64,000 nucleotides of DNA from Candidatus Binatia bacterium (GTDB lineage Bacteria; Desulfobacterota; Binatia; HRBIN30): positions 128,001 through 192,000 of the forward strand of contig JBBRSP010000006.1 of assembly GCA_038245295.1 (NCBI GenBank), given 5' to 3'. The notes under the pieces were generated by a model. It worked only from the letters and a program-made list of their open reading frames with translations. It searched no databases and had not been told where the DNA came from. The translations under genes and the position numbers were made by a program. Below, piece after piece: positions 38,681 to 59,518 of this stretch (the first letter of the stretch is position 1; each line of letters starts with the position of its first letter).

Positions 38681-38808
38681 GCAAGCAACATGCTCCCAGG
38701 AAGAGGCGCGGCGCAACTGCCGAACATCGGCCATCGGGCCTTATGCTCCGTCTCCCGCATCGGGCCGAAAAGCTTCCCTTCGATAGCCGGCTGTGGCAGC
38801 ACGTACCG

Positions 38809-41550
38809 GTGCGATTTCTTACCTACCAAGATCTCGATATCGGTCCTTTTGCGACCAAGCTGGACAAGGTGCGCAGCGCCATTGAGCGCGACGATTTCCG
38901 GTCGGCGGATGTGAAGAAGCTGGTTGGCTCTGGTTACTACCGAGCCAAGCTCGATGACGCCTCGCGTTTGCTGCTGTCCTTCGTTCAGTTTCGCGGCGAA
39001 ACCGCTTGCCTGGCGCTCGAGGTCATTGCGCACCATGCGTACGACAAGTCTCGTTTTCTGCGCGGCGCCAGCGTAGATGAGACGTCACTGACCGACGTCC
39101 AGACCGCGGACAAGCTCGAGGCGGCGCCGATCCGCCATCTCCATACGACCCGCAGCACCTTTCACCATTTGGATAAGCCGCTGTCCTTCGACGACGCGCA
39201 GGCGGAGGTGTTGCAACATCCGTTGCCGCTGGTCTTGGTGGGCTCGGCTGGGAGCGGCAAGACGGCGCTCATGGTGCAGCGCCTGCGCACTGAGCCAGGG
39301 CGGGTTGCGTACATCACCGAGTCCTCCTGGTTGGCGCGGCTGGCGCGTGAGCTCTACGTCGCCTGCGGCTTCGATCCGGGCGAACAGGAAGCCGACTTCC
39401 TCAGCTACCAGCAGCTGCTCGAGACGGTGGAAGTTCCGAAGGGACGACCCGTGTTGTTCCGCGACTTCGCCGCCTTCTTCCAGCGGCATCGCCAGAAGAT
39501 CCGCTTTGCCGACGCACACCAATGCTTCGAGGAACTGCGCGGTGTCATCACCGCCGAGGCCGAGGGACCTCTGTCGACGCAAGCCTATCTACAGCTGGGT
39601 GTTCGCCAGAGCATTTTTGCGCCAGAGCAGCGCCAACTATTGTACCCGCTTTTTGAGGCGTGGCGCGCCTGGCTTTTGGCGAACGAGCTCTACGAGCCCA
39701 ATCTGGTGGCACACGCCTGCCTCGAGCGCATGACGGCGAGCTACGACTTCGTGGCGATCGACGAGGTGCAAGATCTGACCAATATCCAACTCACCCTGGT
39801 ACTACGCTCGCTGAAGCCTGGGGCGCGCTTCATCGTGGCGGGCGACGCCAACCAGGTCGTCCACCCGAACTTTTTTGCCTGGGCGAAGGTCAAGAGTCTC
39901 TTCTGGCGCGGCGCCGGGTTCGACGAAGCTCGTGACGTCTCCGTGTTGTCGATGAGCTACCGCAACAGCAATGCCGTAACCGCCGTGGCCAACCGGGTCC
40001 TCAAACTCAAACACGCGCGCTTTGGATCCGTCGATCGCGAGAGCACGGCATTGATGAAAAGCGCCGACAGTGTCGAGGGCGACGTTGCTTGCTTCGCCAC
40101 ATCGAGCCCTGCCGTCGCCGAGCTCGATGCGAAAACGAGCCGTTCGACCAAAGTGGCGGTTGTTGTGTTGCGTGATGAGCACAAGGCCGAGGCACGCGCG
40201 CGGTTTCGCACGCCGTTGGTCTTCTCGGTCGTCGAGACCAAGGGCCTCGAGTACGACAGCGTCATCCTGTTCCGCCTGATCGCCTGCGAGCGCCAGACCT
40301 TCGCCGCGTTATGCGAAAACGTCAGTACGGCGGACCTGCAGATCGAGGAGCTCGCGTATCGCCGCGCCCGCGACAAGAGCGACCGATCGCTGGAGGTATA
40401 CAAGTTCTTCGTCAACGCGCTGTACGTGGCGCTGACGCGTTCGGTCGAGAACGTGTATCTCGTTGAGGATGACCCCGAGCATCCTCTGCTGCGGCTTCTC
40501 GCCATTCGGCAGGAAGGCAGCACGGCAACGGTTCAGGCGCGGGCGGCGTCCATCGACGAATGGCAGCGTGAGGTGCACCGTCTGGAGCAACACGGAAAGC
40601 AGGAGCAAGCCGAAGCCATCCGGACCAAGGTGTTGCACCTAGCGCCCGTGCCCTGGAAGGTGCTGGAGGGGGAAACACTTGCACAGCTCGAGAAGGTGGC
40701 TCTCGCTCCGGGAAGTGTTTCATCGAAAGCCCGCCAGCAACTGCTCGACTTTGCGCTCTTTCATGTTGAAGACAATCTCGTCCTCAAGCTGCGCCCCGGC
40801 GACATGGATCACGTGGTCGATTGTCACAGGCTTCGGGCGCCGGTAAGGCGGCGCATGCTCGATGGCTTCGAAGCACGACACTTCAAGGGCGTACTGGACA
40901 AATGCGCCCACCACGGCGTTGATTTTCGCAATCCGCATAACCTGACGCCGCTCATGCTCGCGGCGGCCGCGGGCAATTGGCCACTCGTCGAGGCGCTGCT
41001 GGAAAGAGGTGCCAACCGCGATGCGCGCGACCACCTCGGACGCGCGGCGCTGCATTGGGCGATCGAGCGCGCCTACGACACTGCCGACTTTACGACCGGA
41101 GACTTTGGCCGTATCTATGATGCCCTGGCCGTGCCCTCGGTCGATTTACAGGTCGACGGAAGATTGATGCAGGTGGGACGCGAGCAGGGCGAGTACTTCG
41201 TGATGCAGGCATGTATCACCAACTACTCGCGTATCTTCGCGAGTGCCTGGTTCCGCCTGTACGGATTTTGTACCGCCCTCCTCATGCGCGACGCGTTCGA
41301 GCGTTTCCCCGAAGTCGTGGTGCGCGCGGCGCGGCGCAAACGCACATACCTGAATCACCTCTTCGCCCGAAACGAACGGGACGGATCGTACAAGCCGAAT
41401 CGCAAACTCTGGGTGCGAGCACGGCAAGGTTACTACATGTTCAATCCGGAGGTCAGTCTGAAGGTGCAGCAACGCGACGGCAGCGAAGCTTGGCTGCCCC
41501 TCCCCACTCTGGTTGGCCACGCGTGGTTGCAAAGCCACTCCTCACCGTGA
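38809..41550 (+). CDS. UvrD-like SF1 helicase with ankyrin repeats and a RelE-like N-terminus
   Basis: GSAGSGKT, IDEVQD, GDANQ, SYRN, KGLEYD and LYVALTR motifs; TPLMLAA and ALHWA ankyrin motifs; GTG start. Confidence 0.82.
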   Translation: MRFLTYQDLDIGPFATKLDKVRSAIERDDFRSADVKKLVGSGYYRAKLDDASRLLLSFVQFRGETACLALEVIAHHAYDKSRFLRGASVDETSLTDVQTADKLEAAPIRHLHTTRSTFHHLDKPLSFDDAQAEVLQHPLPLVLVGSAGSGKTALMVQRLRTEPGRVAYITESSWLARLARELYVACGFDPGEQEADFLSYQQLLETVEVPKGRPVLFRDFAAFFQRHRQKIRFADAHQCFEELRGVITAEAEGPLSTQAYLQLGVRQSIFAPEQRQLLYPLFEAWRAWLLANELYEPNLVAHACLERMTASYDFVAIDEVQDLTNIQLTLVLRSLKPGARFIVAGDANQVVHPNFFAWAKVKSLFWRGAGFDEARDVSVLSMSYRNSNAVTAVANRVLKLKHARFGSVDRESTALMKSADSVEGDVACFATSSPAVAELDAKTSRSTKVAVVVLRDEHKAEARARFRTPLVFSVVETKGLEYDSVILFRLIACERQTFAALCENVSTADLQIEELAYRRARDKSDRSLEVYKFFVNALYVALTRSVENVYLVEDDPEHPLLRLLAIRQEGSTATVQARAASIDEWQREVHRLEQHGKQEQAEAIRTKVLHLAPVPWKVLEGETLAQLEKVALAPGSVSSKARQQLLDFALFHVEDNLVLKLRPGDMDHVVDCHRLRAPVRRRMLDGFEARHFKGVLDKCAHHGVDFRNPHNLTPLMLAAAAGNWPLVEALLERGANRDARDHLGRAALHWAIERAYDTADFTTGDFGRIYDALAVPSVDLQVDGRLMQVGREQGEYFVMQACITNYSRIFASAWFRLYGFCTALLMRDAFERFPEVVVRAARRKRTYLNHLFARNERDGSYKPNRKLWVRARQGYYMFNPEVSLKVQQRDGSEAWLPLPTLVGHAWLQSHSSP

Positions 41551-41672
41551 CAATCTCCGGCGGCGGCGCCGGGTCTGGCGGGAATGTACGATCGAGACAG
41601 CAGGCAGCAGGAAAAAGCGGGACTCCTGTCTTTTGCCTACTGCCTCTCGCAGGTGGTCTTCGGTTTCCGGCT

Positions 41673-42335
41673 TCACCCGAACAACAGCGGGTGAAACCAA
41701 CGCAGCACGACGGTGACACCGATGGCGATCATCAATCGCAGCGCGCCAACTTCTTGCAGAGCCTTGCCAATGCCACCTCTGGTGAAGGGCAGGAACGGCG
41801 TGGCTTTCACGTACGCGTCGTAACCCTGCAAGCCGGCGGCGAGCTTGCGTTGATCCTGATGTCGGCAACCGACGATGGCGAACAGCGGCAGACCACCGAA
41901 GAAGGCAACGTCCGAGGCGAAACCATTGGGGACCATGTGCAATAGACCGAGCAAGCCGAAGCCCATGAATAACGGATGACGCGTGATGCGGGCGACGCCG
42001 CGCACGTCCATCGTGCCGCCGGTCATCGACGCCGGGCTCGGCTGCAGCAGGCCAAGCACCGCTAGCGACATCGCGATACCGATCAGCAAGTAAAGAAGCC
42101 CCTGCGTGCCCGGCCCGATCGGCACAGCCCAAAGCACGGGCCCGCTGTGTTTATGCCCCAGGTAGACCCTGACGAGCGGAACGAAGAAGGCGAGCGAGAT
42201 CAGCGAGTAGACTCCAAGAAAGGCGCGCTCACCGAGACGATCGACCAGCACGGCGCGCCAGCGGATACTCGACAAACCAATATGCGTCGCCGCAAACCCT
42301 AGCCACAGCAAGACGATCACGAGGGTGGCGTTCAT
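41673..42335 (-). CDS. NnrU family membrane protein
   Basis: F...H..L, Y.LISL, RITRHP, D.RK and T..LPF motifs. Confidence 0.85.
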   Translation of the reverse strand: MNATLVIVLLWLGFAATHIGLSSIRWRAVLVDRLGERAFLGVYSLISLAFFVPLVRVYLGHKHSGPVLWAVPIGPGTQGLLYLLIGIAMSLAVLGLLQPSPASMTGGTMDVRGVARITRHPLFMGFGLLGLLHMVPNGFASDVAFFGGLPLFAIVGCRHQDQRKLAAGLQGYDAYVKATPFLPFTRGGIGKALQEVGALRLMIAIGVTVVLRWFHPLLFG

Positions 42336-42447
42336 GAAGCCTCCGTTTCACCGCCAGCATTCCCCCAGGAACAGCCACGGCGCAACCGTCGCTACATTGG
42401 GCGGTGCGCGAAGATTTTCTAGGTACCGCATTTTGTCACCCTGACAT

Positions 42448-42637
42448 GTCATCCCGGCGAAGGAGACTGTCGATTTTCTCTGATTCATCGTTTGAAACAG
42501 CGCAAACACCCCCGTCATACCGGCGAAAGCCGGTATCTCCCCAGCATTTCCGGCCTTCCACTCGAGGAGATCCCGGCTTTCGCCGGGATGACGTTGCTTC
42601 ATTTCAGTTTATCGACAGTCTCTTCCGCCGGAATGAC
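42448..42637. repeat. composite CGTC-type REP element, copy 2
   Basis: Outer inverted arms GTCATCCCGGCGAAGGAGACTGTCGA / TCGACAGTCTCTTCCGCCGGAATGAC enclosing an inner REP doublet. Confidence 0.8.
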
Positions 42638-42720
42638 GGAGGTAGGGCTCGTTGGCCTGAGTTGGTTCGGGCTGGAAGATGACGGCAACGGTTTCGCGCC
42701 GCTGGTGTTGGGACCAGACC

Positions 42721-43494
42721 CTACCGAGCTGGGTACCGGCCCCGGAAGAGACACACCACCTGCCGCAACCGATCGTCTAGGCGGGCGATCGCCTCGCGTT
42801 CGATCTCCGCCGGCACGCCGCCGTAGAATGCCTCGGCCACCGATCCGGTGATGCAGGTCAGCGTGTCGCTGTCGCCGCCCAGCGAGATGCCTAGGCGGAT
42901 GGCGTCCTCGAAGTCGGTAGACTCCAGGAACGCCGTCAGCGCCTCGGGCACCGTCTTCTGGCAGGTCTCGTTGAACGTGTACTTCGGACGGATCTCATCG
43001 CAGGAGCGCGACAGATCGTAGCCGGTATAGTCGATGACCCACTGACGAATCTCCGCTTTGCCGGCGTCATGGCGGCCCATAAAGATCGACCCGGCAACGG
43101 CCTGGGCGCCCTTGATGCCTTCCGGGTGATCGTGCGTCACAGCCGTGTAGAAGCGCGCCTGCTCCAGCGTCTCGCCGAGTGTCGCATAGGCCCAGCCTAC
43201 CGGGCTCACCCGCATGGCCGCGCCGTTGCCGAAGCTGTGGTACGGTCCCATCGATGGATCACCAAGCCAGCGCCGGAACATGCCGCCGTAGCCGGCGTCG
43301 GGGTAGCGCCGCCCGTAGGCGCGCATCAACGCCGCATAGTCTGCCTGCTCGAGAATGGCCTGCGCCAGCGCGATCGTCAGGACACTGTCGTCCGTGAAGA
43401 AACTGCGCTCGGTGAACAGCGGAAAATCCTTGGAGCGGTGATTGTTCCACTCGTACACAGAACCAACGATGTCGCCGACCAGAGCTCCCAGCAT
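42721..43494 (-). CDS. ADP-ribosylglycohydrolase family protein
   Basis: MLGA..GDI.GS.YE, FTDD, S.GNGAAMR, TH.HP and GGDSDT motifs. Confidence 0.92.
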   Translation of the reverse strand: MLGALVGDIVGSVYEWNNHRSKDFPLFTERSFFTDDSVLTIALAQAILEQADYAALMRAYGRRYPDAGYGGMFRRWLGDPSMGPYHSFGNGAAMRVSPVGWAYATLGETLEQARFYTAVTHDHPEGIKGAQAVAGSIFMGRHDAGKAEIRQWVIDYTGYDLSRSCDEIRPKYTFNETCQKTVPEALTAFLESTDFEDAIRLGISLGGDSDTLTCITGSVAEAFYGGVPAEIEREAIARLDDRLRQVVCLFRGRYPAR

Positions 43495-43588
43495 CGGGAA
43501 ACGGTACCACATCGCGGCGCCTTTGCCCTGCCTCCTGACGCAACAGTCGTGGAGGCGGCAGATAGATGAGACTTCACCAACCGCTCTT

Positions 43589-43885: not shown

Positions 43886-44260
43886 GGGGGCGCACTGGTT
43901 TCGACGGGGGTCTGGAAGGTTGCGGTTGCGTGCATGGGATCCTGGGTACCATTCAAAACCCCAGGGCTGCTTAACTGCAGACAATAATTTCGCACTCGCT
44001 GCTTAAGAGCAACGACGTTTCACCGGTCCGAGCCTGTAGGCCTGGCTGAAGCGACGCAAATCAGGATAAGCGGTGACCGGTGCTCGGGGGTCACTGACGA
44101 AAAATCACGAGCTGGCTCAACGGAATCTTGCCGTAAAAGCCCTCCATAGCCTCGGCGACGGAGGGTGGGAGTCCGGTGAGTAAGATTAAATCACGGAACT
44201 ACGCACGTAGACACTGTAGCTAACCGCCTTCGGACGGGGGTTCGATTCCCCCCGCCTCCA
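43886..44260 (+). ncRNA. ssrA: transfer-messenger RNA (tmRNA)
   Basis: 5' GGGGGCG..GGTTTCGAC pairs with 3' CGCCTCCA (G3-U alanine identity pair); T-arm GGGGG-TTCGATT-CCCCC; tag frame 43977-44006 = ADNNFALAA-stop after TTAACT. Confidence 0.96.
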
Positions 44261-45604
44261 TTTCCCTAACCCCTTAACTCTCTTGGGGTTTCTCTCATCC
44301 GAATGCCCCTTGGGGCCTATTTCGGGGCCTATTGTCTCGGGTTGGTCCTGCCCAAGGAAGTTCATCAACGATCGGCCATGCCCGCGACGCAGGCCCGGCA
44401 TCCAGTTGCGATAGTGACGGAAGATCATCTCTTCGGAGGTGCCGCACACCTGCGCAATCCAACCCGGGTCTTCGCCGGCGGACAAGGCCAGCGTGATGAA
44501 CGTGTCGCGGATATTGTACTGACCCCGGCCAATGACGCCGATGCTCGAAAGCGTGGGATGCCAGACGCGTTTGGCGAGCCATTCTTGCGAGAGCGGGCGA
44601 CCTTGCGAGTCCGTAAACACGTAGCCATGTAGTCCGTGGTCCAGACTGTCTTGGCGGCGGCGTTCCAACATCTCGAACAGTGCTGGATCGTAATCACACA
44701 CGACCTCGCGCTCTCCTGTCTTTGGCGCGGCTTCGAGGCCACCCAGTCGCGGCGAGCGTCCCTGGCGCAGCTCGACCACCTGACGCGCCGGAGACAACCA
44801 ATCGAAACGGAGTGCGACAATTTCGTTCGACCTCCATCCGGTGCGGAACCACATGTAGTACAGATCGCGGAGGGTCTGGCCACTCACGAACGCTTTGCCG
44901 CGCATGTCCACTTGTGGCGGCAGGTAATTGAGGAACTGTTGCACTTCCTCGACCGCCAGCGGCTTGCTCTGTTTCCGCAGATGCTTCGTGAACCGTCTGG
45001 CGCTCGCAAGCTTCGGCACCGGGTTGCTTGCGATGAGCTGTTCCTCGACCGCATCCTGCATCGCCTTGTGCAGGAGTCCCATGTGGTTGAGCACGGTCTT
45101 ACCGCTCAGCTTCGCATCCGTAAGCGAACGCTTGAAGTCCAAGCACGCCGAGGATGTGATCTCGGAGACCAACAACTCAGCCATGCGAAACTTCGGGTTC
45201 TTGAGCCACGCCTTGATGACCGAGCCCTCGTGCAACCATGTTGTCGGATGCAGATCCGCTTCAGGCATCAGCGTATTGTCCGGCCGAAATGGTGAACGAC
45301 GGGCGTACCATTTCTCGAACCACGCTCGCAGCGTGAGCTGCTTTCCGTGAGTTCCCACGCCGCCCGTAGGATAGAAGACACAGAGTTTCGTCCCGTTTGG
45401 GAACCAGGCCCTATAGTCAAACCGCTCGGCCTCGATCTCGGCATTGATCAGCTGAAGATGCACCGTCCACTTCTTCCGATACTCGGCAGTGTCGGGATCG
45501 GTGATGTACTCCTTGCAGCGTACGCCGCGCCACGTAAAGCTGAGGTAGAGATGACCGTGCTTTGCCCCGACGCCACTGCGGTTGCGGCGAACCCCTCTAG
45601 CCAT
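44186..45604 (-). CDS. tyrosine integrase with arm-DNA-binding N-terminal domain
   Basis: L.FTWRGVRCKE arm-binding domain; TGWRSNE (R), PKT (K), YNIRDTF and RHY (Y); 3' end reads antisense into ssrA. Confidence 0.9.
   Translation of the reverse strand: MARGVRRNRSGVGAKHGHLYLSFTWRGVRCKEYITDPDTAEYRKKWTVHLQLINAEIEAERFDYRAWFPNGTKLCVFYPTGGVGTHGKQLTLRAWFEKWYARRSPFRPDNTLMPEADLHPTTWLHEGSVIKAWLKNPKFRMAELLVSEITSSACLDFKRSLTDAKLSGKTVLNHMGLLHKAMQDAVEEQLIASNPVPKLASARRFTKHLRKQSKPLAVEEVQQFLNYLPPQVDMRGKAFVSGQTLRDLYYMWFRTGWRSNEIVALRFDWLSPARQVVELRQGRSPRLGGLEAAPKTGEREVVCDYDPALFEMLERRRQDSLDHGLHGYVFTDSQGRPLSQEWLAKRVWHPTLSSIGVIGRGQYNIRDTFITLALSAGEDPGWIAQVCGTSEEMIFRHYRNWMPGLRRGHGRSLMNFLGQDQPETIGPEIGPKGHSDERNPKRVKGLGKWRRGESNPRPKAVSYSVYVRSSVI
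44312..44333. promoter_or_regulatory. putative integrase arm-type binding sites
   Basis: GGGGCCTATT direct repeat at 44312 and 44324, about 50 bp inside the att junction. Confidence 0.5.
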
Positions 45605-46052
45605 GGCTTCGCCCTCGGCGATGAAACGGCGCAACAGTTGTCGACGGCGCTGACGGTTCAGGTGTCTGCCGTAGCCACGCCTGGATCGCTGACCAGAAGA
45701 ACAGCAACTTCCTTCCCTTTCGCGCATAGTGCTCTCCTTGGCGAAGCTGGCCCGAAGAGACGATGGCGCGAAGCGTGCTCTCGCCCAACTTGATGCGTTC
45801 TGCCAGCTCGGCCAGCGTGAGGCACTCGTCAGGCCCAGACTGCGGCGTCGCGTTCAGGAGACGCGCCGCAAGTAAAGTCTGGATTGTCGCAAGCTCGGTC
45901 ATGAGCACTGGAATAGTCTCTCTCGATGCGTCCGTCACCACATCTTTCAGCGATTCAAGAAAGCTGGCGCTGATCGCTCCGCCGGTACGCGGATTGTCGC
46001 GCTGCGAGTCTGCGGAAGCGTCGGAGCTATGTGGTCGGATTGTCGAGTTCAT
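45597..46052 (-). CDS. excisionase-like HTH protein
   Basis: LTLAELAERIKLGESTLR..G.L..K.GRKLLF winged HTH; overlaps the integrase start. Confidence 0.75.
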   Translation of the reverse strand: MNSTIRPHSSDASADSQRDNPRTGGAISASFLESLKDVVTDASRETIPVLMTELATIQTLLAARLLNATPQSGPDECLTLAELAERIKLGESTLRAIVSSGQLRQGEHYARKGRKLLFFWSAIQAWLRQTPEPSAPSTTVAPFHRRGRSHG

Positions 46053-46960
46053 CGGGATGGTGAGGGCAATAGCCGCGCATCGGGCGGACCTTTGCCCCTT
46101 GTGCTGCGGACGTTTTCTCCCGGCGTCCCTTCCTTACTGTAGGGAAGTCCGGCGAGCTCTCGTAAGGAATGCGGCACCGCGCTCGCGGCCGCTCGCCAGA
46201 TCGCTCCCGTGGGGTCGCTCGTCACATCGTGCAGCGAGGCAAACCACACCGGGAGGGACGCGCGCACGTGAGCCACTCGCGCCCGGTAGCGTTCAAGCCA
46301 GACGGGATCGTGTCCAACGACGAGGACGATTTCCGGTGTGTCGCTCGGCTGCCAGTGGCTCGCCGTATAGCCGTATACCTTCTTCAAGAACCGCTGCGGT
46401 GTTCTCGTCTGATGTTCGACCTCGAGAGCGAACGTTGCGTGGACCTGATCGTCCCAGCCTACATCGAAGTGCGCGTCGGGAACGATTCGTCGAAGGCGCG
46501 GCGTGCGCAGTTCCCAGTCAGACCGCCACGACAGGATCGCTCCGCCGGTTGCATCGAGCCCCCGCGCCAGGTGCACGCGGACCGTGTTGATCGCGAGGAG
46601 GTGCTCCAGGTTTCGGTCGAGGCCCCGTGGGACGCGGTAGCGCTCATCGGCCGCTCCTTCATTTGCGAGAACCAGTCGTCCCGAGTTCGCTAGACTATAG
46701 ACGTTGTCTCCCGAGAGGCTGCGTACCCACACGCGCACAAGGCCTGCGTTGAGCAATCGGCGCAGGCACTTGTTCGTCGCGGATCGCGTGCCGAAGCACA
46801 TGGTCTGGATCTGCGTCGTTGTGAGGAAGCGCATCTTCGCCAGTGCTTCGAGGAGCCACTGATCACGATCGGTCAGGCGCACACGCGCCGCGTTTGCTCG
46901 CTTGAGTGTGCGGCGAGTGCGGCAGCACTTTGACAGCAAAGCAATCGGTGTCTCGATCAT
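46049..46960 (-). CDS. replication-relaxation (Replic_Relax) family protein
   Basis: LTDRD..LL..L...RFLTT.QI wHTH, H.LAIN and PD......ALEVE nuclease-like motifs; ATGA overlaps at both ends. Confidence 0.8.
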   Translation of the reverse strand: MIETPIALLSKCCRTRRTLKRANAARVRLTDRDQWLLEALAKMRFLTTTQIQTMCFGTRSATNKCLRRLLNAGLVRVWVRSLSGDNVYSLANSGRLVLANEGAADERYRVPRGLDRNLEHLLAINTVRVHLARGLDATGGAILSWRSDWELRTPRLRRIVPDAHFDVGWDDQVHATFALEVEHQTRTPQRFLKKVYGYTASHWQPSDTPEIVLVVGHDPVWLERYRARVAHVRASLPVWFASLHDVTSDPTGAIWRAAASAVPHSLRELAGLPYSKEGTPGENVRSTRGKGPPDARLLPSPSR

Positions 46961-47280
46961 ACGCTCTGCACCGGGTTCTTGAGACCAACCCCGCATACCT
47001 GGCACGGAATGAAGGGCGGAGCGGCGCCGCAGACGGCGCAGCGCGTGAACGCAAAGCCATCAAACACGTATCGACAACGCCCGCATTCGAAACGACCGAC
47101 CAGACTAACTGGCGAACCGCATCCGAAGCAGGGCAACGCGTCCCGACGGGTCAGCACAACCGCGCCAGCGAGTTGCTTGGTCCAGCGGTAAAGACGACTC
47201 GCCACGCCGAATGGTAGCAGCACCGCCCAAAGGGCGAGCCGGATGGTCAGCAAGAGCGAGCGGAACATCAGATCTTCCAT
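46957..47280 (-). CDS. small membrane-anchored zinc-ribbon protein (four CxxC)
   Basis: Hydrophobic N-terminus then CFGC, CGRC, CAVC, CQVC; start and stop overlap both neighbours. Confidence 0.72.
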   Translation of the reverse strand: MEDLMFRSLLLTIRLALWAVLLPFGVASRLYRWTKQLAGAVVLTRRDALPCFGCGSPVSLVGRFECGRCRYVFDGFAFTRCAVCGAAPPFIPCQVCGVGLKNPVQSV

Positions 47281-48887
47281 CAGCCGAGTCGTGGCCTTCC
47301 CCGCCGAGTTGGCGGAACGGGCTCTTGAGACACGACGACGATCGGCGGCCGAACAAGTTCCCGGAGGCGAGCTTTCCGCGCGGTGAGTTGGCGACGCAAC
47401 ACTTCTCTCGGGACGGCGAAACCGCCGTGGTCGATCCCCTGTTCCCTGATGAACGCGTCGAGCCGGTTCGCGGAGATCCCGATCCGCTCGTGTGGGGGCA
47501 CGAAGTCCGCGACTCGAACTTGGACTGCACGGTATGGTTTGCGACGATCGTACCAGTAGCACATGCGGTTCGGCAGCCGCTGTAGTTTCTCCATCAAGTG
47601 ACGGCGCATTTCGCTGCGACTGGGAACCTCCCCTGAGCGGCGCAGGGCGCTTCCCACCATTTCCGGGTCGACGTCGGGAAGGAAGTCACCGAAGAATTCG
47701 GCGTTCCGCCCCGACGTCCGAAACAGCGCCATGAGGTCGCAGTTCGCAAGCATCGTCTCCCGGAGCGCCGGCGGCACTTGCGAGAAGTTGTGCATGACGA
47801 GTGCCAGGTGCACACCGAAGCTCCGAAGCGTCGTGAGTGCCGTCGCGAAGCGGTCGGCCAGCGCCGGGGCGGCGAGCAGGTGGAAGAATTCATCGAGGAC
47901 GACGAGGTACGGACGATGTTTGCCTTCCGAGGCATAGGCCGCCTGGAACAACAGCTGAAGCAGCAGGCTGCCGAGCAAAGCCACCACCTCTTCTGGAATG
48001 CCGGCACCTTTGCCGAGAAATACGAGCAAAGGATCACCTCGTGAGATGACGTCGCTCAGATCGATGAGATCGTCCGCCCCGAGCATGAGGCGGACGTTCT
48101 CGGCGAGCAGCAATGCCTGCAGCCGAGCGGTGAGCGCATGCTTCGACGTCTCCGGGAGAATCGCGTACGTCCGAAAGAAGAACTCCTTCAGGCGTTGGTC
48201 CGCCGACCGCTCGACGAGCACACCGCGCAGCACGTCATCTTCCAGGACGGCAGGCGCCTCGACGAGCGACAGACCGGCCTCGGTGAGGAGCATCACCAAG
48301 TGACGGAGGATGTTCTCCATATGAATACTAAGCGAGGCCTCAAAGAGACGCGCGAATGCCAGGGTGACGTCGTAGGCCTGCACTTCGGCCGTCGATCCGG
48401 ATGGTACCCGGCAGATGTTCAAAGGCGGCAGCGCATCGCTGAATGGGTTGATGATCGCGAGTCGCTCAATGAAGGTGGTGCGATCCCCTGGGTTCATCTC
48501 CCACGCGATTGCGGCAGCTGACTGCAACACCATGTGAAAGAATCCCGACTTGCAATCGACGACGCCGATCGGTCGTCGTACCGAGAGTGCCCAGTCGACG
48601 CACGACGTAACGAAGGTCGTCTTGCCAGTACCGGTCCCACCCTGAACGAGCCAGTGCGCGGCGAAATCATCCGGGCTGAGTCGTAGACGCACCATTTTAC
48701 CGGCCGCGTCGCCCGCCGTGCCAATCTGCAGCGCAAGCTCTTTATCCTGACTAGTTGTAACAAAAGCGTCGTAGTCACCGACGGCTTCGCGAAACACCCG
48801 GGCGCTCGCCCTTGCCACCTCGGCTCGTGCCTTCTGGCGATCACGCGCATGGCCGCGCGCGACTTGAATCCAACGCTCAAGTGCCAT
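47280..48887 (-). CDS. VirD4/TraD-like coupling ATPase (HerA-FtsK superfamily)
   Basis: H.LV.GGTGTGKT (Walker A), VVDCK, VVLDEF (Walker B) and RSFGVHL..HN.SQ motifs. Confidence 0.82.
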   Translation of the reverse strand: MALERWIQVARGHARDRQKARAEVARASARVFREAVGDYDAFVTTSQDKELALQIGTAGDAAGKMVRLRLSPDDFAAHWLVQGGTGTGKTTFVTSCVDWALSVRRPIGVVDCKSGFFHMVLQSAAAIAWEMNPGDRTTFIERLAIINPFSDALPPLNICRVPSGSTAEVQAYDVTLAFARLFEASLSIHMENILRHLVMLLTEAGLSLVEAPAVLEDDVLRGVLVERSADQRLKEFFFRTYAILPETSKHALTARLQALLLAENVRLMLGADDLIDLSDVISRGDPLLVFLGKGAGIPEEVVALLGSLLLQLLFQAAYASEGKHRPYLVVLDEFFHLLAAPALADRFATALTTLRSFGVHLALVMHNFSQVPPALRETMLANCDLMALFRTSGRNAEFFGDFLPDVDPEMVGSALRRSGEVPSRSEMRRHLMEKLQRLPNRMCYWYDRRKPYRAVQVRVADFVPPHERIGISANRLDAFIREQGIDHGGFAVPREVLRRQLTARKARLRELVRPPIVVVSQEPVPPTRRGRPRLG

Positions 48888-48895
48888 CTCGATCC

Positions 48896-49186
48896 TCAGT
48901 GGTCGCGCTGCTCATGTCGCCGTTCGGCAATCCCCGCCGGCCGACGCACCGGTGGAATGCGGAGCGGCTGTTCATCCTCGATCTCCACATGCCCATGCCG
49001 CCGTATGGTCATCCCCGCACCCAGGCATACCGCTACGATTCCCACGAGCAAGAGCCACGGCAGCACGACACTGATGACTAGAACGATTGCCTGGAAGGCG
49101 CAGCACATGAGCGGCTGCACGATGAGCAGCGCCACCACAAGCTCGACCAGCGTGTCCATCGATGCCCGGCCGCGCTCATCGTTCAT
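48896..49186 (-). CDS. small two-TM membrane protein
   Basis: Long hydrophobic stretch then basic tail; ATGA overlap with the JAB-E1 stop. Confidence 0.65.
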   Translation of the reverse strand: MNDERGRASMDTLVELVVALLIVQPLMCCAFQAIVLVISVVLPWLLLVGIVAVCLGAGMTIRRHGHVEIEDEQPLRIPPVRRPAGIAERRHEQRDH

Positions 49187-50625
49187 CCGGAGGCGCCTTC
49201 CGCGTGGCCGACATCATCCAGACCAGGGATGACCGGTGGTAACTCACTCCTGCTCATGCGGTTCGGGCGCCAGGTCGGAACAAGATCACCCAGACCCAGC
49301 CGTCCTTCTGCGCTGCAGTGCAAACACCCCTTTGTTTCCGGCACGGTGATTGAGAAGATCTCCCCTTCGAGTTCGCGATAGACGAGGTACGGCCGCGGGT
49401 TCCGGTAGGGGGCGACGAGGTTGTGCAGCTCTGCCACAGCAAGCGAGGCCACCACACCGTTTAGGTGGTACACCGCGGGCGCAGCTACTCCGGTCAAGTA
49501 TCCGCGTTGCGTCAGAAGCGCCCGCTCCTCTGGTCGTGCCAGATCTTGTGCTGCACGCGTCGCGTCAAGCACACCTGCGCAGAGCAGGCACCACGCTCCC
49601 AGGGGCGGCACCACGACTTCGCCGCTGATATCGTCAAAGCGTCCGTCGTCGCCCACGCTGAGGTTGACCCCAGCGTGCAGAATCGGAATCAGATATTGCG
49701 CGGCCAAGGCGTTGAGCACGAGACGGGAAGCATCGTTGTCCGTGGCAGCGATCAAGACATCGCAACCACTGAGCGCCCTGAGCGAGCGCTCCGTGAACAC
49801 GGTACAACGCAGCGCCTTGATTTCCGCATCGTCGTCGATGCTGCGAATGTTTCGCGCCGCCACATCGACCTTGGCGATTTCTTCGGTCGCATCGGAGAGC
49901 GTGGTCGCGAGCAGTCGATTGAGGTTGCTGACTTCGACAATGTCCGGATCGACCAGCACCCAATCCCGCACCCCGAGTCGGGTGAGCTCCTCAACAATGA
50001 CACTGCCAATGCCACCCACGCCGACAATTCCCACGCGCAGCGCTCGCATCCGCGCCTGAAACCCTCTCCCAAAAGCGCCGATCTGCCGATCGAACCGAGC
50101 GGCGTCGACCGCTGACAAGCCCGCATCCCCATCGAACATCAGCATCGCTCCATCGAAGGACGGCGACGGAATTCGAACCGGCCTCGCTTCGTCATCGCGC
50201 ACCTCCCAAATGCGTGTGGCTGTGCTCGATGGATTGACGACGACCGAACCGTAAACCGTTTCAGGCAGGCGCTCCGCGAGGTAGGCAGCCATTACGAGTT
50301 CGTTTTGATCATCGATACACGAGAAATCGACGTGCGGGCCGTCACCGGGGTGCGAGTGGAAGTCGACCTGCGACAAACCCTCTTGGGCGGCCAGTTGCAG
50401 GACGTGCTGCTGCACCTCGGGTCGCAGGGTCAGACCGCCCGCCGATTGATGACTGAATGCCTCAGGCGGCATGAGTACGAGGTGACGTCCCAGAAGCCTC
50501 AGTTGTGTGCCTGTGCGGTGCAGGCCGCAGAGTACGATAGCCATTTGCTCACGCTCTCGATCGTGGAGCAGGTGCGTGCGGAGTTCTCCTCCCATGGTTG
50601 GTGGAAGGACGATTCGATAGTTCAT
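49183..50625 (-). CDS. JAB peptidase-ThiF/E1 adenylyltransferase fusion
   Basis: JAB: E...HSHP....FS..D; E1: RFDRQ, GVGGIGS, DPD.VE.SNLNR, K, TDN..SR, CLLC and CLHC. Confidence 0.9.
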   Translation of the reverse strand: MNYRIVLPPTMGGELRTHLLHDREREQMAIVLCGLHRTGTQLRLLGRHLVLMPPEAFSHQSAGGLTLRPEVQQHVLQLAAQEGLSQVDFHSHPGDGPHVDFSCIDDQNELVMAAYLAERLPETVYGSVVVNPSSTATRIWEVRDDEARPVRIPSPSFDGAMLMFDGDAGLSAVDAARFDRQIGAFGRGFQARMRALRVGIVGVGGIGSVIVEELTRLGVRDWVLVDPDIVEVSNLNRLLATTLSDATEEIAKVDVAARNIRSIDDDAEIKALRCTVFTERSLRALSGCDVLIAATDNDASRLVLNALAAQYLIPILHAGVNLSVGDDGRFDDISGEVVVPPLGAWCLLCAGVLDATRAAQDLARPEERALLTQRGYLTGVAAPAVYHLNGVVASLAVAELHNLVAPYRNPRPYLVYRELEGEIFSITVPETKGCLHCSAEGRLGLGDLVPTWRPNRMSRSELPPVIPGLDDVGHAEGASG

Positions 50626-50636
50626 GACGGATGTCC

Positions 50637-51188
50637 TCAATTGTCGTTGGTCAACACGTCGCGCACGAGCGACAAGAAGGTCCACAGATTGTCGGAATCG
50701 CGGAAGTCGGCCGATGGCTGCCAACCGCCATCGTCAGGAGCCTTCGGCCAGACGCAATACCAGTGCCAACCTGCTGCCAGAAGATCGGGCGCACCATGAA
50801 ATGCGGAGCTGGTGAGATGTGGATCACCCCCGCCGTCGGCCAGAGGAAATTTCCTGTCGAGATAGAAACCGAGTGGCGGTGAGATCGGGTAGGTCTGTGG
50901 GAACACGACTAAGAGCTGCGCCCAGCGGTGCTGCCAGCGTTCCGGGAGCGCGAACTGTTGGATGCGAAGCCAATCGCCGTTCGCTTCGTCGAAGTCGACG
51001 CCACCGCGATCGCTGAAACGCGGCGCGATCATCAGGACCTCGTTCTGAATGCGCGTTGTGCGATCGTCGAACCCCGAGGGGCCAACGGCAGCCCGGCGCG
51101 CTGGCGCTCTGTCGGGCGTCACGTCGATCGCCGTATCATGGCCGTCTGGTATGAACAGTGCCTCAAGGACTCGGACGAATGTGCTCAT
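50637..51188 (-). CDS. prokaryotic E2/UBC-like protein
   Basis: W..I..F.LP..W..LL..P..YP..PP.GFY UBC-like pattern, WHWYC and DNL.TFL; lies between the Ubl and JAB-E1 genes. Confidence 0.78.
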   Translation of the reverse strand: MSTFVRVLEALFIPDGHDTAIDVTPDRAPARRAAVGPSGFDDRTTRIQNEVLMIAPRFSDRGGVDFDEANGDWLRIQQFALPERWQHRWAQLLVVFPQTYPISPPLGFYLDRKFPLADGGGDPHLTSSAFHGAPDLLAAGWHWYCVWPKAPDDGGWQPSADFRDSDNLWTFLSLVRDVLTNDN

Positions 51189-51412
51189 GAAAACCTCCCC
51201 CTGGCCTGCCCTTTGACCCGCGCCGGCGCATCGAGAAATACGTCCCCGTCGTTGATCGGAACTCTGCTGCCCTTCGGGATCATGAAGTTGCCTTCTCGCG
51301 TTCGGCGCATGAGATTGCGCTTGCCGTCGATGTTGCCGATCCGACGGATATCCGCATCGGAGGCTGACTCCGGCAAATTCACCTGACGACCGTTGATGAT
51401 TGCTGCTGCCAT
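51185..51412 (-). CDS. ubiquitin-like (beta-grasp) protein, 75 aa
   Basis: IINGRQV..DGDVF..RVKG pattern, RBS AAGGGAG, position upstream of E2 and JAB-E1. Confidence 0.72.
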   Translation of the reverse strand: MAAAIINGRQVNLPESASDADIRRIGNIDGKRNLMRRTREGNFMIPKGSRVPINDGDVFLDAPARVKGQARGRFS

Positions 51413-51452
51413 TTTGTGTTCTCCCTTTTTGTGTTGTGCTGCTGTTGAAGGA

Positions 51453-51662
51453 CTATCGGTTCCGCCCGCGGCGCTTCGGCGCGCCGCCGAAGAGTTGCTT
51501 GGCAACCTCATGGCCCAGCCCGCCAAGCTGTCGCGTCGCTTCGCCCTTGAAGCCTCGCAGTTGCCACTCGGCCTCGCGGCCAAAGCCGCGGAGCTGCCGA
51601 CTCGCTTCACGACGGATTTGGCGAACGAGCCCGCTCCGTCTGTCATCGCCTCGCTTTGCCAT
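51453..51662 (-). CDS. small basic protein with four 11-residue repeats
   Basis: Strong RBS AGAGGAGGA; repeats REASRQLRGFG / REAEWQLRGFK / GEATRQLGGLG / HEVAKQLFGGA. Confidence 0.68.
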   Translation of the reverse strand: MAKRGDDRRSGLVRQIRREASRQLRGFGREAEWQLRGFKGEATRQLGGLGHEVAKQLFGGAPKRRGRNR

Positions 51663-51808
51663 TCTTGTCCTCCTCTCTTGTTTTTTGATCGGTCATGGCT
51701 CGCGTCGAAGCGCCGTACAGAACGCCTCACGTGTGACCGGATCCTAGAGCGGATTGAGAAAAGGGGTACGGTAACGACGGGGCTACGGAGAGGGATACTG
51801 AGGATAGG

Positions 51809-52678
51809 TCAAACGACCGCGAGGACGCGGCAGATTTGGCGAACGACGTCGGTGGCAATCGCGCTTTGGGCGTGCAGCAACTGGGACTCGGAGAAAGGGT
51901 AAGAGCTGGCCCACAGGACTTCTTGTTTCTTTGTGTCGGTCAACTCGACGTCGAGTCGAGCGACATCACCGTGCGCGCGAAGGATACCGATGAGCACGGC
52001 ACAGACTTCGTCGGCGCGAACGTCGCGCTGTCGGTTCTCAGCTTTACTGTGAGCTGCAATCTCGAGAACAGTGGCCAGATCCGCAGAAACAACTCGCAGT
52101 CCGCGGACGCTGGAAAGCTGCGCGAGAATGGTCGCACGAAAGCCGCCGGCCAAATCTGCGCCGAGTCGTTCACCTGTGGCCGCTTGGAATGCAGGCATGA
52201 GTAGACAGTGGTTGAACGAGACGCCAGCCGACTCGGCCCGCACGAGCTCGCGCCAGTCCACTCGCCACCCGACCCGCACGCTCAACACGTCGGCAAGTTT
52301 TACCAGCGAGCCACTCGTCGCTCGACCCCCGCTGCGCCACTTCTTGATCGTGCCTTCCGAAAGAAGCCGGCTCTCGAGCGCCAGTCCAGGTTCGTAGAGG
52401 TCGATGATTTTCAAGCCGGCCTGTCGGCAGAGCGTCTTGAGCTTGGGGTAGTCAACGGAGTAGCCGCGGCGATGCTCATCGTTTGCTGTTGTGGTGGCAC
52501 GCGATATCGCGCGCCCTCCGCCGCTCTTACCTTGTCGTGGTCGTGAAGATCGGGCAAGACGTCGTGTAGCCGCTCCCACCACGGTGGTTACTGGCGATAC
52601 CGGATCAGGAGCGACGAACCCTCGCGTTTCGTGCCGACGCTGCGCCGGCTCGGCTCCTTCTGATGCACGACGGTTCAT
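51809..52678 (-). CDS. XRE-like HTH fused to a TolB-N-like domain
   Basis: LSEGTIKKW.SG....L.KLA.VL HTH; P.F..LA.G...LS...GLRV.S..V.L.D....LW..Y..Q..IA pattern; start uncertain. Confidence 0.6.
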   Translation of the reverse strand: MNRRASEGAEPAQRRHETRGFVAPDPVSPVTTVVGAATRRLARSSRPRQGKSGGGRAISRATTTANDEHRRGYSVDYPKLKTLCRQAGLKIIDLYEPGLALESRLLSEGTIKKWRSGGRATSGSLVKLADVLSVRVGWRVDWRELVRAESAGVSFNHCLLMPAFQAATGERLGADLAGGFRATILAQLSSVRGLRVVSADLATVLEIAAHSKAENRQRDVRADEVCAVLIGILRAHGDVARLDVELTDTKKQEVLWASSYPFSESQLLHAQSAIATDVVRQICRVLAVV

Positions 52679-53763
52679 TGCCTGGCCTCCTTCCGAGGGC
52701 GAGTACTTTGACGGCGAGACGTTTGTCTCCTCGTGGAGGATTTTGGGGTCTTTCCTCTAGGTGACGAGACAGGGGCGATATGAGGGGCCTTCGGAACATC
52801 GCCAACGTCTGGAACCGCGGCGATTTCATCTATGCTCGACGGCGGTAGCAAGGTGACCTCTTCCTTAATGCCAGGACGCAGCCGTTCGGCGAGTTGCAAC
52901 CTGCGGCGAAACCATATGCGGTAGTCGGCTGACGACGCTCGCGGTATCGCGTCCACGCCACTCGCGACGAGCCACCCGTGGGCAGCTGCGAGTGTGGCAT
53001 TGAACTCCTCGATCAGTCCGTCGACCGGATCGTGTCGATCCAGCGGAAAGCCGCTCGTCTCGATTTCTTGCAGCAGCTCATCGCCAATCGGCAACAGGCG
53101 GTGAGTTGCGAATTGGACGAACCGGAGGGGCTCACCCACGGCGTGTGGGAGCAAGTATGAAACGAGTCGGAAATTCGCGTCGACAGCGTGCGGGACTTCA
53201 CCTAGCGCGAGCGCTGTCAGATAGTGGTAGCGACGACATTCGTTCCACAGGAGAAACGCATAGGCGGCCTGCTCGTTCGGCAAGAGCCCTTGAATTAGTA
53301 CGCCAGCCGCCGCCAACCGAAGAGCGGATTGGAGGTGGCGATCCAGTTGATCGCTGTACGCGACGACAACGATCCTTCTCTCCGGAAAAAACAGGGCGCC
53401 CATGCGCTCGGCTTCCTTTAGCGATCGCACAATTAGTTTGGATGGACCCATCCACGTCCACAAGCGATAGCGGCGATCACGGGTTTCAAAGAGGAGCGGA
53501 AGGTAGCGCACCTTCCGCGTCGAGCGCTGTTCGAGACGTCGCTCCTGTCGCAGAGCCTCTAGGCCGATCTTTCCGCCACCGTGAGCGCGGACAAATTCCG
53601 ACCGGTAGACTTTCTTGTACGCCGCCGAGTGACGCCGTCCCAAGCCGCGTTTAGTCACAAGCCTCTTCCTCTTCCTCTTCTCACCGCTTTCTGTTGATAC
53701 CGGTCGGCGCGCTTCACGGGGTGAGGCGGGCGGTGGGTTATGTTTGTTGTCGTCCATCGTCAT
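52675..53763 (-). CDS. hypothetical protein
   Basis: 362-aa ORF whose stop overlaps the next ATG; basic termini; no motif recognised. Confidence 0.55.
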   Translation of the reverse strand: MTMDDNKHNPPPASPREARRPVSTESGEKRKRKRLVTKRGLGRRHSAAYKKVYRSEFVRAHGGGKIGLEALRQERRLEQRSTRKVRYLPLLFETRDRRYRLWTWMGPSKLIVRSLKEAERMGALFFPERRIVVVAYSDQLDRHLQSALRLAAAGVLIQGLLPNEQAAYAFLLWNECRRYHYLTALALGEVPHAVDANFRLVSYLLPHAVGEPLRFVQFATHRLLPIGDELLQEIETSGFPLDRHDPVDGLIEEFNATLAAAHGWLVASGVDAIPRASSADYRIWFRRRLQLAERLRPGIKEEVTLLPPSSIDEIAAVPDVGDVPKAPHIAPVSSPRGKTPKSSTRRQTSRRQSTRPRKEARQ

Positions 53764-56960: not shown

Positions 56961-57118
56961 GGACATTGGGTGACTTCAGGTGACTTTGGGTGACATTGAC
57001 CGGGCGGTGTCGACGGCACACCACGCAGCATCCCGAGCTGCCGCGCTGATTCGTCGAGCCTCGGTGGCCACCTCTCCGCTTCCCATCCTGAAGTCACCCA
57101 AAGTCACCTAACGTCACC
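56961..57118. repeat. inverted iteron arrays, putative replication origin
   Basis: Three GGTGAC with 10-bp period (56969-56998) and three GTCACC with 10-bp period (57093-57118). Confidence 0.65.
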
Positions 57119-58458: not shown

Positions 58459-59518
58459 CGGTTTGAGAGTGAAGGTTTTCCAAAAACTCAAGCGCTTTCA
58501 GGAACGGTAACCGCTCGACGGCGATCACGAACGTGATCACGTCACCGTACCGGCCGCAGCCGTAGCAGCGGAACCGACCGGCCTCGGGGTACACCATGAG
58601 CGAGGGGTAGTGGTCTTCGTGGAAGGGGCACCGGCCACGCAGACTCGCGCCGGACGGGCGCAGTTGGATGTAGCGCTCGATCAGATCGCCAATGGGAACC
58701 GCCGCCTTTACGTCAGCAACGCGACGACTCACTTCGTTGAAGGGACGCGAAAGACCAGACGACGGTATCACCGGTAGGGTCACGGGAAGCACGGGTACCG
58801 GCGTCGCTCGCTCAAGGAGCCCGAGAAAGTCTTCGCGCGTGTGTTGAAGTCGCACGAAGAAGTCGGTGATGTCACCGGCCGGACCCACCTCGTCGGGTAA
58901 CTGGACGATTTTTGCATGTGGCAGGAATTGGCCGACGCGCAGCGCTCCAGCCCGGCCGGCGCCGTCGAGATCAAAGCAGAGGTAGATCTCCGGAATTGGT
59001 GCGAGATCATCAACCCACTCGGTACGGAGGGTACCCGCGCCACCGGTCGACGTCACGGCCGCGAAGCCGTGCGACTCCAAGACCAGTCGATCGAACTCGC
59101 CTTCGCAAATGATGAGGCGGCACGGTTTCGCGAGCACACGCTCCCAACCGTAGAGTTCTACTGACCCGCCGCGCGACGTCAGCATTTTTGGATCGTCGTT
59201 GCTGCCTTCCGGATCCCTCGCCAGTTTGAAGCAAACCACTTCGTCCAAGCGGTTGCGGATCGGAATCGTAATGCGCCGACCGTTCCAACCGAGCTGATGG
59301 AGTGTGATCACCTCGTCCGCGATACCGCGCGCCACAAGATACGTGCGAATGCGGTCGGGCAGCGCTTCGTGGTACCGAATGGCTTGGGCGCGAAGGTCGT
59401 CATGCATGATTCGCACGGTACGACAGTCTACTACGTGGCCGAAGGCGGCGCGGTATGGCGACAACGGCAAGTCGGCCAGTCTTCGGTGCATTGAGGACGA
59501 CGCGTAGGATGGACGCAT
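58439..59518 (-). CDS. DNA primase-like protein (Toprim plus C-terminal CHC2 zinc finger)
   Basis: YL..RGI, ICEGEFD, CFD.D.AG and DITDF motifs; CPFHED..PS...F.CYGC at the C-terminus; start uncertain (59407 possible). Confidence 0.82.
   Translation of the reverse strand: MRPSYASSSMHRRLADLPLSPYRAAFGHVVDCRTVRIMHDDLRAQAIRYHEALPDRIRTYLVARGIADEVITLHQLGWNGRRITIPIRNRLDEVVCFKLARDPEGSNDDPKMLTSRGGSVELYGWERVLAKPCRLIICEGEFDRLVLESHGFAAVTSTGGAGTLRTEWVDDLAPIPEIYLCFDLDGAGRAGALRVGQFLPHAKIVQLPDEVGPAGDITDFFVRLQHTREDFLGLLERATPVPVLPVTLPVIPSSGLSRPFNEVSRRVADVKAAVPIGDLIERYIQLRPSGASLRGRCPFHEDHYPSLMVYPEAGRFRCYGCGRYGDVITFVIAVERLPFLKALEFLENLHSQTDGREAA

Follow-up and report, generated by a model that had tools for sequence, protein, structure and literature searches.

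A Bub-like ubiquitin-like conjugation cassette ahead of a mobilisation and integration core in an integrated element of Candidatus Binatia

Bacterial operons for the conjugation of ubiquitin-like proteins (Ubl) have been described under several names, and Bub is the closest to the locus reported here. According to the available part of its description (bioRxiv 10.1101/2024.11.21.623953), Bub operons have the order BubAB-BubCD-BubE (Type I Bub corresponding to 6E.1), bubE is present in all of them, and the pathway operates wholly via oxyesters, with Tyr370 as the E1 nucleophile and Ser333-His335-Asp299 used by the E2. Both Bub and Bil appear as known or likely antiphage systems in the accessible portions of their descriptions. 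In the main text of an earlier survey, as far as available (Iyer, Burroughs and Aravind 2006, PMC1779556), operon 6e contains an N-terminal JAB-E1 fusion, a Ubl and sometimes a stand-alone E2-like gene, and some 6d/6e-type clusters are carried by conjugative elements. The excerpt at hand of PMC10910872 lists the gene classes NYN-Ubl-E2-JAB/E1, without chemistry, as a module linked to clustered regularly interspaced short palindromic repeats (CRISPR). On the mobilisation side, the streptococcal integrative and mobilisable elements (IME) of IME_Class_8 are reported, in the part of the paper available, to bring their own VirD4 and a MobC/PF13814 relaxase, the genes for coupling-type ATPase, relaxase and integrase lying compactly together, and to have no type IV secretion system (T4SS) (PMC5357655). 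Here we analysed a stretch of 64,000 nucleotides, hereafter the window, from a Candidatus Binatia bacterium (GCA_038245295.1, contig JBBRSP010000006.1, positions 128,001 to 192,000), in which a Ubl conjugation cassette precedes the mobilisation and integration genes of an integrated element.

Ten open reading frames (ORFs), all on the minus strand, occupy 44186..51662, where the cassette stands ahead of a fixed core made of a membrane protein, a VirB4/VirD4-type ATPase, a Zn protein, a MobC-type relaxase, an excisionase-like protein (xis) and an integrase. We found that this arrangement is real and conserved, that the cassette is a new Bub-like variant, and that its coupling to transfer is optional at most. 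In operon order (L numbers are our locus labels), the genes are as follows.

51453..51662, minus strand: amphipathic peptide of 11-residue repeats (11-mer peptide), 69 amino acids (aa); homologues in L002, L073 and L062
51185..51412, minus strand: single-domain Ubl, 75 aa, with a 7-residue tail behind a 68-aa domain whose last residues are KG; recognised by iterative search
50637..51188, minus strand: E2 of Pfam family E, 183 aa, with Cys145; Prok-E2_E 29.3 bits (cut-off 25)
49183..50625, minus strand: JAB peptidase-E1 fusion of 480 aa, homologous to BubCD; residues E26/H90/H92/D105, R237, crossover-loop Tyr376 and the Zn-site Cys
48896..49186, minus strand: membrane protein, 96 aa, with a Pro/Arg-rich tail; core gene, preceding the ATPase in 30/33 loci
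47280..48887, minus strand: ATPase of the VirB4/VirD4(TrwB)/HerA superfamily, 535 aa; Walker A at 83, model pLDDT 90.9
46957..47280, minus strand: Zn protein, 107 aa, with a hydrophobic N-terminus and four CxxC pairs (8 Cys); core gene
46049..46960, minus strand: Replic_Relax (MobC-type) relaxase, 303 aa; PF13814 65.3 bits, NF041423 weak
45597..46052, minus strand: excisionase-like helix-turn-helix (HTH) protein, xis, 151 aa; HTH_17 27.9 bits, TIGR01764 E 5e-4 (under cut-off)
44186..45604, minus strand: tyrosine integrase, 472 aa, running through an attachment (att) core into a transfer-messenger RNA (tmRNA) gene; Arm-DNA-bind_2 48 bits, Phage_int_SAM_5 27 bits

Computed from the coordinates, the junctions are 40 bp (peptide-Ubl), ATGA (Ubl-E2), 11 bp (E2-JAB/E1), ATGA (JAB/E1-membrane protein), 8 bp (membrane protein-ATPase), TGATG (ATPase-Zn protein), ATGA (Zn protein-relaxase), ATGA (relaxase-xis) and an 8-bp overlap (xis-integrase), exactly the ten co-directional genes and nine junctions of the initial annotation. 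From these junctions and overlaps we infer that the ten genes are co-transcribed. A promoter scan of 44000-53000 was uninformative (0 sigma-70-like promoters vs 1.2 in shuffles), and terminator-like matches in the same interval were at chance level (9 vs 6.7 ± 2.9 in shuffles); contigs from two DNA runs of one study placed the stretch on one 24-kb contig with no informative joint. Two further co-directional ORFs lie upstream of the peptide gene (51809-52678, 146 bp away, and 52675-53763), so the peptide gene need not be the first of the operon. The peptide itself, with repeats that presumably resemble lipid-binding 11-mer repeats, follows one ATPase subclade and not the cassette: in L062 it stands directly before the ATPase, without JAB/E1. 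No oriT-like conserved motif was found upstream of the peptide gene in four aligned regions.

The JAB-E1 fusion, in which the E1 is a single ThiF domain, had Citrobacter BubCD as its best PDB match (E 1e-38), with 121 bits to ThiF and 20.3 bits to Prok-JAB, the latter under its cut-off of 25. The JAB residues E26, H90, H92 and D105, the adenylation Arg237 and Tyr376 were invariant in 51/51 close homologues, only 2/51 of which had a Cys in the E1 crossover region (350-390). Tyr376 aligns with the RGY of BubCD and, like the JAB residues, was invariant in 16/16 rows including four BubCD. For the E2, the model (pLDDT 84.6) gave BubB 9eae as its top Foldseek match, and profile alignment with BubB reached an hhalign probability of 98.5%. 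The E2 motif WHWYCVW aligns with WQRWSRH of BubB, placing Cys145 at the BubB catalytic Ser, and the BubB Asp is replaced by Gly. This Cys was present in 53/53 locus E2s and in 140/145 of the best representatives covering the column (150 listed). The Ubl, encoded separately from the E2 in the window and fused to it in many relatives, ends its domain in KG in all of 52 iterative matches except two frameshifted pieces, K67 and G68 being invariant in 20/20 aligned sequences. The window Ubl had no Pfam match; relatives matched two families below cut-off, ThiS-like at E 8.8e-5 and Multi_ubiq at E 0.015. A Ubl profile search of solved structures returned no match, and hhalign gave 24.9% and 0.4% to two BubA. 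The seven residues that follow Gly68 would provide a job for the JAB domain. With dN/dS of about 0.08-0.15 (window vs L002/L073, dS near saturation), lower than in the core genes, the Ubl, E2 and JAB-E1 genes are, by this estimate, under purifying selection. The family with a Cys-type E2 comprised 237 clusters at 50% identity (E up to 1e-10).

A JAB-E1 profile retrieved 59 genome loci (the weak, E1-only L060 was excluded from the context count): 40 with Cas genes or an array, 8 with a VirB4/VirD4-type ATPase or Replic_Relax gene, and 11 with neither in the stored flank, one of which (L018) has a HerA-like ATPase by Pfam. Neighbours in the CRISPR loci included Cas1/2/4, reverse transcriptase, Cas6, Cas10, Cmr and CARF. 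An NYN nuclease gene was adjacent in 36/40 loci having at least 2.5 kb upstream and absent from the window, L002, L005, L072, L073 and L088; NYN and Cas queries had no tblastn match in the host genome. Judging from these neighbourhoods, the window's lineage has lost its usual NYN partner. In an E1 FastTree of 68 domains, the window fell in a starred 8-row clade nested in a 21-row group, whose other rows are three that are also ATPase-linked and ten from Chloroflexota, eight of which lie in CRISPR loci. The cassette also stands beside more distant ATPase/relaxase pairs in L001, L003, L009, L013, L038 and L055. Relatives of the E2 were fused to TIR, EAD8/EAD9 and RRM domains and, among the 150 matches listed, to an ATPase or relaxase in 0/150. 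Such Cys-type fusions include RRM plus helical-repeat proteins of about 1,130 aa as well as TIR and EAD8/EAD9 proteins (P0290, P0291, P0300, P0305, P0276 and P0303). A third kind of context was seen in L019:651-17669 and L018, where the cassette lies amid VWA, VWA-caspase, cold-shock and Hsp70-like genes. L013:11492-12166 encodes a weak bacterial HORMA and cold-shock-domain protein between the cassette and the ATPase module. Viral contigs gave generic ThiF matches only in the JAB-E1 search (47 loci) and none for the ATPase. PLSDB plasmids had no ATPase match and JAB-E1 matches of only 28-34%, the five inspected being four Bub operons and one NYN/CRISPR locus.

The linkage of cassette and core is real and recurrent in other genomes and metagenomes, and the neighbourhood comparison proposed with the initial annotation revealed more kinds of cassette than expected. 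A search seeded with the ATPase yielded 54 metagenome loci, and the gene before the membrane gene, hereafter the slot, was readable in 28 of them (six via C-terminal tails by eye); the seeding favours the window's kin, the nearest homologues of the window's ATPase were the source of the profile, and 26/54 loci were unreadable upstream. JAB/E1 genes of four distant E1 lineages occupied the slot in 9/28 loci, with the window-type cassette in 5/28 (L061, L072, L073, L088 and L111) and other types in 4/28 (L080 and L114; L069; L106). Of the 19/28 slots without JAB/E1, 16 were VWA-type, either a multi-pass protein with a VWA-like end (12/28) or another VWA protein (4/28: L062, with a weak NYN, L081, L096 and L108), and the others held an AAA+/DUF2997/radical-SAM array (2/28) or a methyltransferase (1/28). 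The commonest occupant, a multi-pass protein of about 550 aa with a VWA-like C-terminal part (L063, L066, L075, L086 and L091; e.g. L075:997-2652), falls in unnamed Atlas clusters, mostly from Acidobacteriota. The ThiF and JAB domains of the four cassette types have family matches (JAB mostly under cut-off); in the L069, L080 and L106 types, the E2 and Ubl genes are candidates by motif and position only, and had no support from profile comparison, Pfam, NCBIfam or PADLOC. At L069:7454-9717, L080:7366-9662 and L106:18-1795, these are small genes with the Cys motifs HWICF, YLCLH and FYICW and Gly-ending Ubl candidates, and the three types are possibly undescribed systems.

On the ATPase tree of 22 rows (the frameshifted L111 and short rows omitted), cassette and no cassette changed six times, in agreement with a 32-row quick tree. 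Cassette locus L069 was sister to VWA loci L070 and L066, cassette locus L080 was sister to VWA locus L081, and a single clade for ATPases with the window-type cassette was rejected (p-AU 2e-8). Because cores with and without the cassette are sisters and 19/28 slots have no JAB/E1, the core does not require conjugation, and a necessary control of the transfer genes by Ubl conjugation is not supported. We read the slot as an exchangeable position, which several distinct tagging sets entered. As a control we took 26 strong Replic_Relax matches in 401 genomes of the class, and 3/26 carried the cassette, all with the Zn gene (the window's own locus, G270:C60 and G271:C120). Genome searches aimed at further close cores had a poor yield, 5/401 (class), 2/52 (order), 4/401 (phylum) and 3/351 (another phylum), and most of these matches were distant ATPases.

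The operon forms one end of a 52-kb island, as judged from the integrase gene reading into the 3' end of a tmRNA gene and from a second copy of that end 52 kb further along the contig, outside the window:

43886..44260, plus strand: tmRNA gene with tag ADNNFALAA, the integration site (ARAGORN; Rfam RF00023, 154 bits)
44238..44260, plus strand: 23-bp att core, the tmRNA 3' end, with an exact second copy at G000:C6:224296-224318

The two copies bound the island, and relatives likewise end in tRNA genes (tRNA-Val, Ser, Pro, Leu, Gly and Phe; 7/14 loci scanned, a locus fetched twice being counted once). RNA families other than tmRNA were not found in an Rfam scan. At 44186-44260, the integrase would have one C-terminus in the integrated form (472 aa) and another after excision (456 aa), a possible directionality switch. 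As the initial annotation had noted, no mating-pair genes were recognised among 26 further island ORFs scanned (not every small ORF being covered), and the VirB4-type PF03135 and TrbI (PF03743) had no match in the host genome (96.6% complete); without such genes, the element would need a helper. Elsewhere, the island carries a second tyrosine integrase (59913-61100) and, within 57094-63830 and G000:C6:192000-224300, a Toprim/CHC2 primase-like gene, a TrlF/Ppl-like ATPase, an HTH and IrrE-like peptidase pair, a 5-hmdU kinase-like domain, a helicase-nuclease and a SIR2-TPR protein. The island may be composite. Outside it, 38743-43512 encodes an ADP-ribosylglycohydrolase and a UvrD-like helicase of 935 aa that carries ankyrin repeats.

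We consider it somewhat probable that the cassette serves in conflict, as an accessory module that occupies an exchangeable slot and is co-expressed with the mobilisation genes. The 52-kb element would sit in the tmRNA gene, with the region studied as its integration and mobilisation end and the position ahead of the fixed core as an exchangeable slot, here holding a Bub-related conjugation cassette. By analogy with BubCD, the JAB domain would trim the 7-residue Ubl tail, exposing Gly68, and an E1 dimer would adenylate the Ubl and take it up as a Tyr376 oxyester. The Ubl would then move to Cys145 of the E2 as a thioester and be placed on target lysines without an E3. Loss of the NYN gene, with all catalytic residues kept, suggests that, as in Bil, the probable target is a protein not encoded by the cassette. 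CRISPR loci as the main habitat of the family, together with the TIR, EAD8/EAD9 and RRM fusions of its E2s, point to a conflict role. The exchangeability of the slot, the purifying selection on Ubl, E2 and JAB-E1 and the known or likely antiphage role of Bub and Bil also favour this reading. The cassette may protect the element and its host from phages or competing elements, or act in counter-defence on arrival, and would be expressed alongside mobilisation genes that do not need it for excision or transfer. Several observations nevertheless weigh against this reading. No restriction, Abi or toxin-antitoxin systems were recognised in the slot, which held almost only JAB/E1 cassettes (9) or VWA-type/membrane arrays (18), whereas ordinary defence cargo would be mixed; the defence-type genes of the island (TrlF/Ppl-like ATPase, SIR2-TPR and helicase-nuclease) sit elsewhere. 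The four E1 types share only 26-30% identity yet occupy the same slot, and the window's E1 subclade is ATPase-linked in 8/8 rows while the ATPase partner changes (26% identity in L001). The other 23 Replic_Relax control loci, 17 of them with at least 3.9 kb upstream, had 0 matches to E1, JAB, E2, Ubl, membrane or Zn genes, and PADLOC 2.0 has no model for the Ubl or E2 type of the cassette.

Some of these observations would be expected if the cassette were an optional direct regulator, adjusting excision or transfer by tagging the ATPase, the relaxase, xis/integrase or a helper machine. The several arrivals of different E1/JAB systems in the slot would then reflect convergence towards this function, and the VWA-type membrane proteins would be comparable adaptors in other elements. 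Tight translational coupling along the whole gene run, placement of the cassette with the core-linked 11-mer peptide on one side and the membrane gene on the other, loss of NYN in the window's lineage and the presence of the cassette near the distant ATPase/relaxase pairs of L001, L003, L009, L013, L038 and L055 are all in its favour. So are the six changes on the 22-row ATPase tree and the frequency of JAB/E1 in the slot, 9/28 vs 0/23 other Replic_Relax loci (0/17 with at least 3.9 kb upstream; Fisher p 0.009, descriptive as kin are not independent). Near-identical cores without the cassette argue against direct regulation, as do the same cassette chemistry in CRISPR loci with no ATPase in view and the 0/150 E2 representatives fused to an ATPase or relaxase; moreover, for the three other cassette types, E2 and Ubl are recognised solely from motif and position. 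We judge direct regulation possible but unlikely. Somewhat less likely is its boldest form, in which Ubl conjugation would have been recruited convergently to control an undescribed mobilisation machine without a pore, four JAB/E1 lineages having entered the slot at least six times because tagging the ATPase, relaxase or helper pays. The window's version would then work by a mixed relay, from Tyr oxyester to Cys thioester, of a kind that no pathway has yet been shown to use.

The core genes keep their order around the ATPase, the relaxase lying downstream in 10/10 loci having at least 3.5 kb of flank and the Zn gene following in 36/38. All 8 Cys of the Zn protein were invariant in 18/18 homologues, and its Atlas matches were unnamed clusters only. 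We considered the Zn protein as an E3 and dropped the idea, since the gene is present whatever the slot holds. A second variable slot, empty in the window, lies between the Zn gene and the relaxase in L066, L069 and L072 and contains small genes, among them DUF6878, DUF6915 and methyltransferases. No Pfam family was common to 16 members of the membrane protein. The ATPase, called VirD4-like in the initial annotation, does have the VirB4/TrwB/HerA fold, but a VirD4 identity is not established: its matches to TrwB_AAD_bind, TraG-D_C and T4SS-DNA_transf, and likewise those in NCBIfam, were all below cut-offs. From the structural model, the fold suits VirB4 at least as well as VirD4. The island encodes another ATPase, TrwB-like and 421 aa long (G000:C6:211705-212970), beside a PD-(D/E)XK gene, and like pairs with DUF932 occur in L066, L069 and L088. 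As this second type is found in the island and near related cores, either ATPase could be the coupling protein.

These features bear on a further, improbable explanation, namely that the core is its own minimal secretion or DNA-export device and not a coupling protein awaiting a helper. The membrane protein would then be VirB3-like and the core ATPase VirB4-like, the multi-pass VWA protein found in most relatives would serve as a channel or for contact, and the coupling protein would be the TrwB-like second ATPase; elements with a Ubl cassette in the place of the VWA gene would be derived satellites that engage or disarm a complete relative by means of the cassette. In VIA, the VirB4 C-domain was indeed the top match of the ATPase model (Z 26.9, 340 aligned, rmsd 3.2), ahead of DndH (Z 25.3) and TrwB (Z 23.9, 382 aligned, rmsd 4.1), and by hydropathy the ATPase has no N-terminal membrane segment. 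The second ATPase exceeds the TrwB_AAD_bind cut-off (48 bits), as do those near the core in L088, L066 and L065, and the c25 protein combines several hydrophobic segments with a C-terminal part that resembles VWA. However, Foldseek placed DndH and then TrwB ahead of VirB4, similar ATPases of about 400 aa occur at control loci without the core, and whole VirB4 is much longer than the core ATPase. No family match backed the VirB3 assignment, with 0/16 membrane proteins matching VirB3 or PrgI.

Finally, the idea that the slot is a mere insertion hot spot behind the operon promoter, where cassettes hitch-hike and the enrichment mirrors cassettes circulating in soil and sediment lineages plus seeding with window-like ATPases, is compatible with the origin of the profile in the window's closest homologues (2/9 cassette loci, L061 and L073, being nearest kin), the 26/54 loci without a readable upstream gene and the frequent swaps, in which integrase and target site vary too (tmRNA here, tRNAs in relatives), but it has little chance of being right, given that 7/26 loci in four E1 lineages remain without the two nearest kin, that purifying selection with near-saturated dS speaks for long co-residence, and that slot content is narrow in kind.

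Pairing of the same Tyr-type E1 with a Cys-type E2 offers a test of whether a Tyr oxyester can feed a thioester, and of how the Ser version arose. A cassette without NYN in a small, defined operon also gives a short list of candidate targets. If the transfer machine is indeed tagged, the operon would provide an example of horizontal gene transfer under ubiquitin-like control. If the role is defence, the cassette would be a CRISPR-independent form of a CRISPR-linked module, and would mark an uncharacterised element family with a specialised, swappable slot.

The initial annotation had named Bil and Bub operons, CBASS and PRTRC as known settings of such cassettes and had overlooked the Bub kinship, the Cys-type E2 and the loss of the usual NYN partner. 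Unlike Type II cyclic-oligonucleotide-based antiphage signalling systems (CBASS) with Cap2/Cap3, which have an E2-E1 fusion next to a CD-NTase, the cassette has a separate E2; PADLOC E1-E2 models match its E1 part only, and no operon gene matched a CD-NTase. PRTRC models (ThiF, ParB and proteins A-F) matched none of the ten genes at E 0.01. With Bil, as presented in the available text (bioRxiv 10.1101/2023.09.26.559546), the cassette shares a Ubl, a Cys-type E2, a JAB and an E1 without E3, and Bil is a model for direct tagging of foreign proteins; in that text, however, Bil has a separate JAB and a multidomain E1 (IAD-AAD-CYS) with a catalytic Cys, whereas here JAB is fused to a single-domain E1. 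The 6e E2s are described without Cys in the accessible text of PMC1779556, which holds no link to a relaxase-core operon; by eye, the L069 cassette resembles operon type 6d of that text in gene content. On the mobilisation side, the element has the integrase, att repeats, relaxase and absence of an own T4SS of an IME (MobC type). Like IME_Class_8 in the available part of its description, the core has an ATPase-MobC relaxase-integrase run without its own T4SS; unlike it, the window has a tyrosine and not a serine integrase (relatives L063 and L075 have a serine recombinase) and extra membrane and Zn genes, and Ubl genes are not mentioned for IME_Class_8 in that part (PMC5357655). In line with the initial annotation, neither the cassette-core architecture nor a Cys-type E2 with a Tyr-type E1 was described in the literature searched; subscription journals and the Bub operon table lay outside it and may list such loci. 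The gene classes in the excerpt of PMC10910872 are those of the CRISPR-locus cassettes, and judged by gene class that module is probably of the same family, the window version standing ahead of a mobilisation core without NYN and CRISPR genes. From its sequence, the cassette is a relative of Type I Bub, Bub-like on the E1 side and without two defining features, the Ser-type E2 and BubE. BubE/DUF6527 (PF20137) was not found in the host genome, and a local BubE profile that finds 3/3 left-out and 3/3 in-place controls detected none in 150 loci scanned. Its E2 has a Cys in place of the Ser-x-His and Asp of BubB, and the cassette differs further in a distinct short Ubl, NYN as the usual partner, and CRISPR loci or a mobilisation core as context. 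It resembles Type I Bub in its BubCD-homologous JAB-E1 fusion with intact JAB and adenylation residues, its crossover-loop Tyr, its E2 of BubB fold and its Gly-ending Ubl, which here would need trimming, and many of its relatives have a BubAB-like Ubl-E2 fusion.

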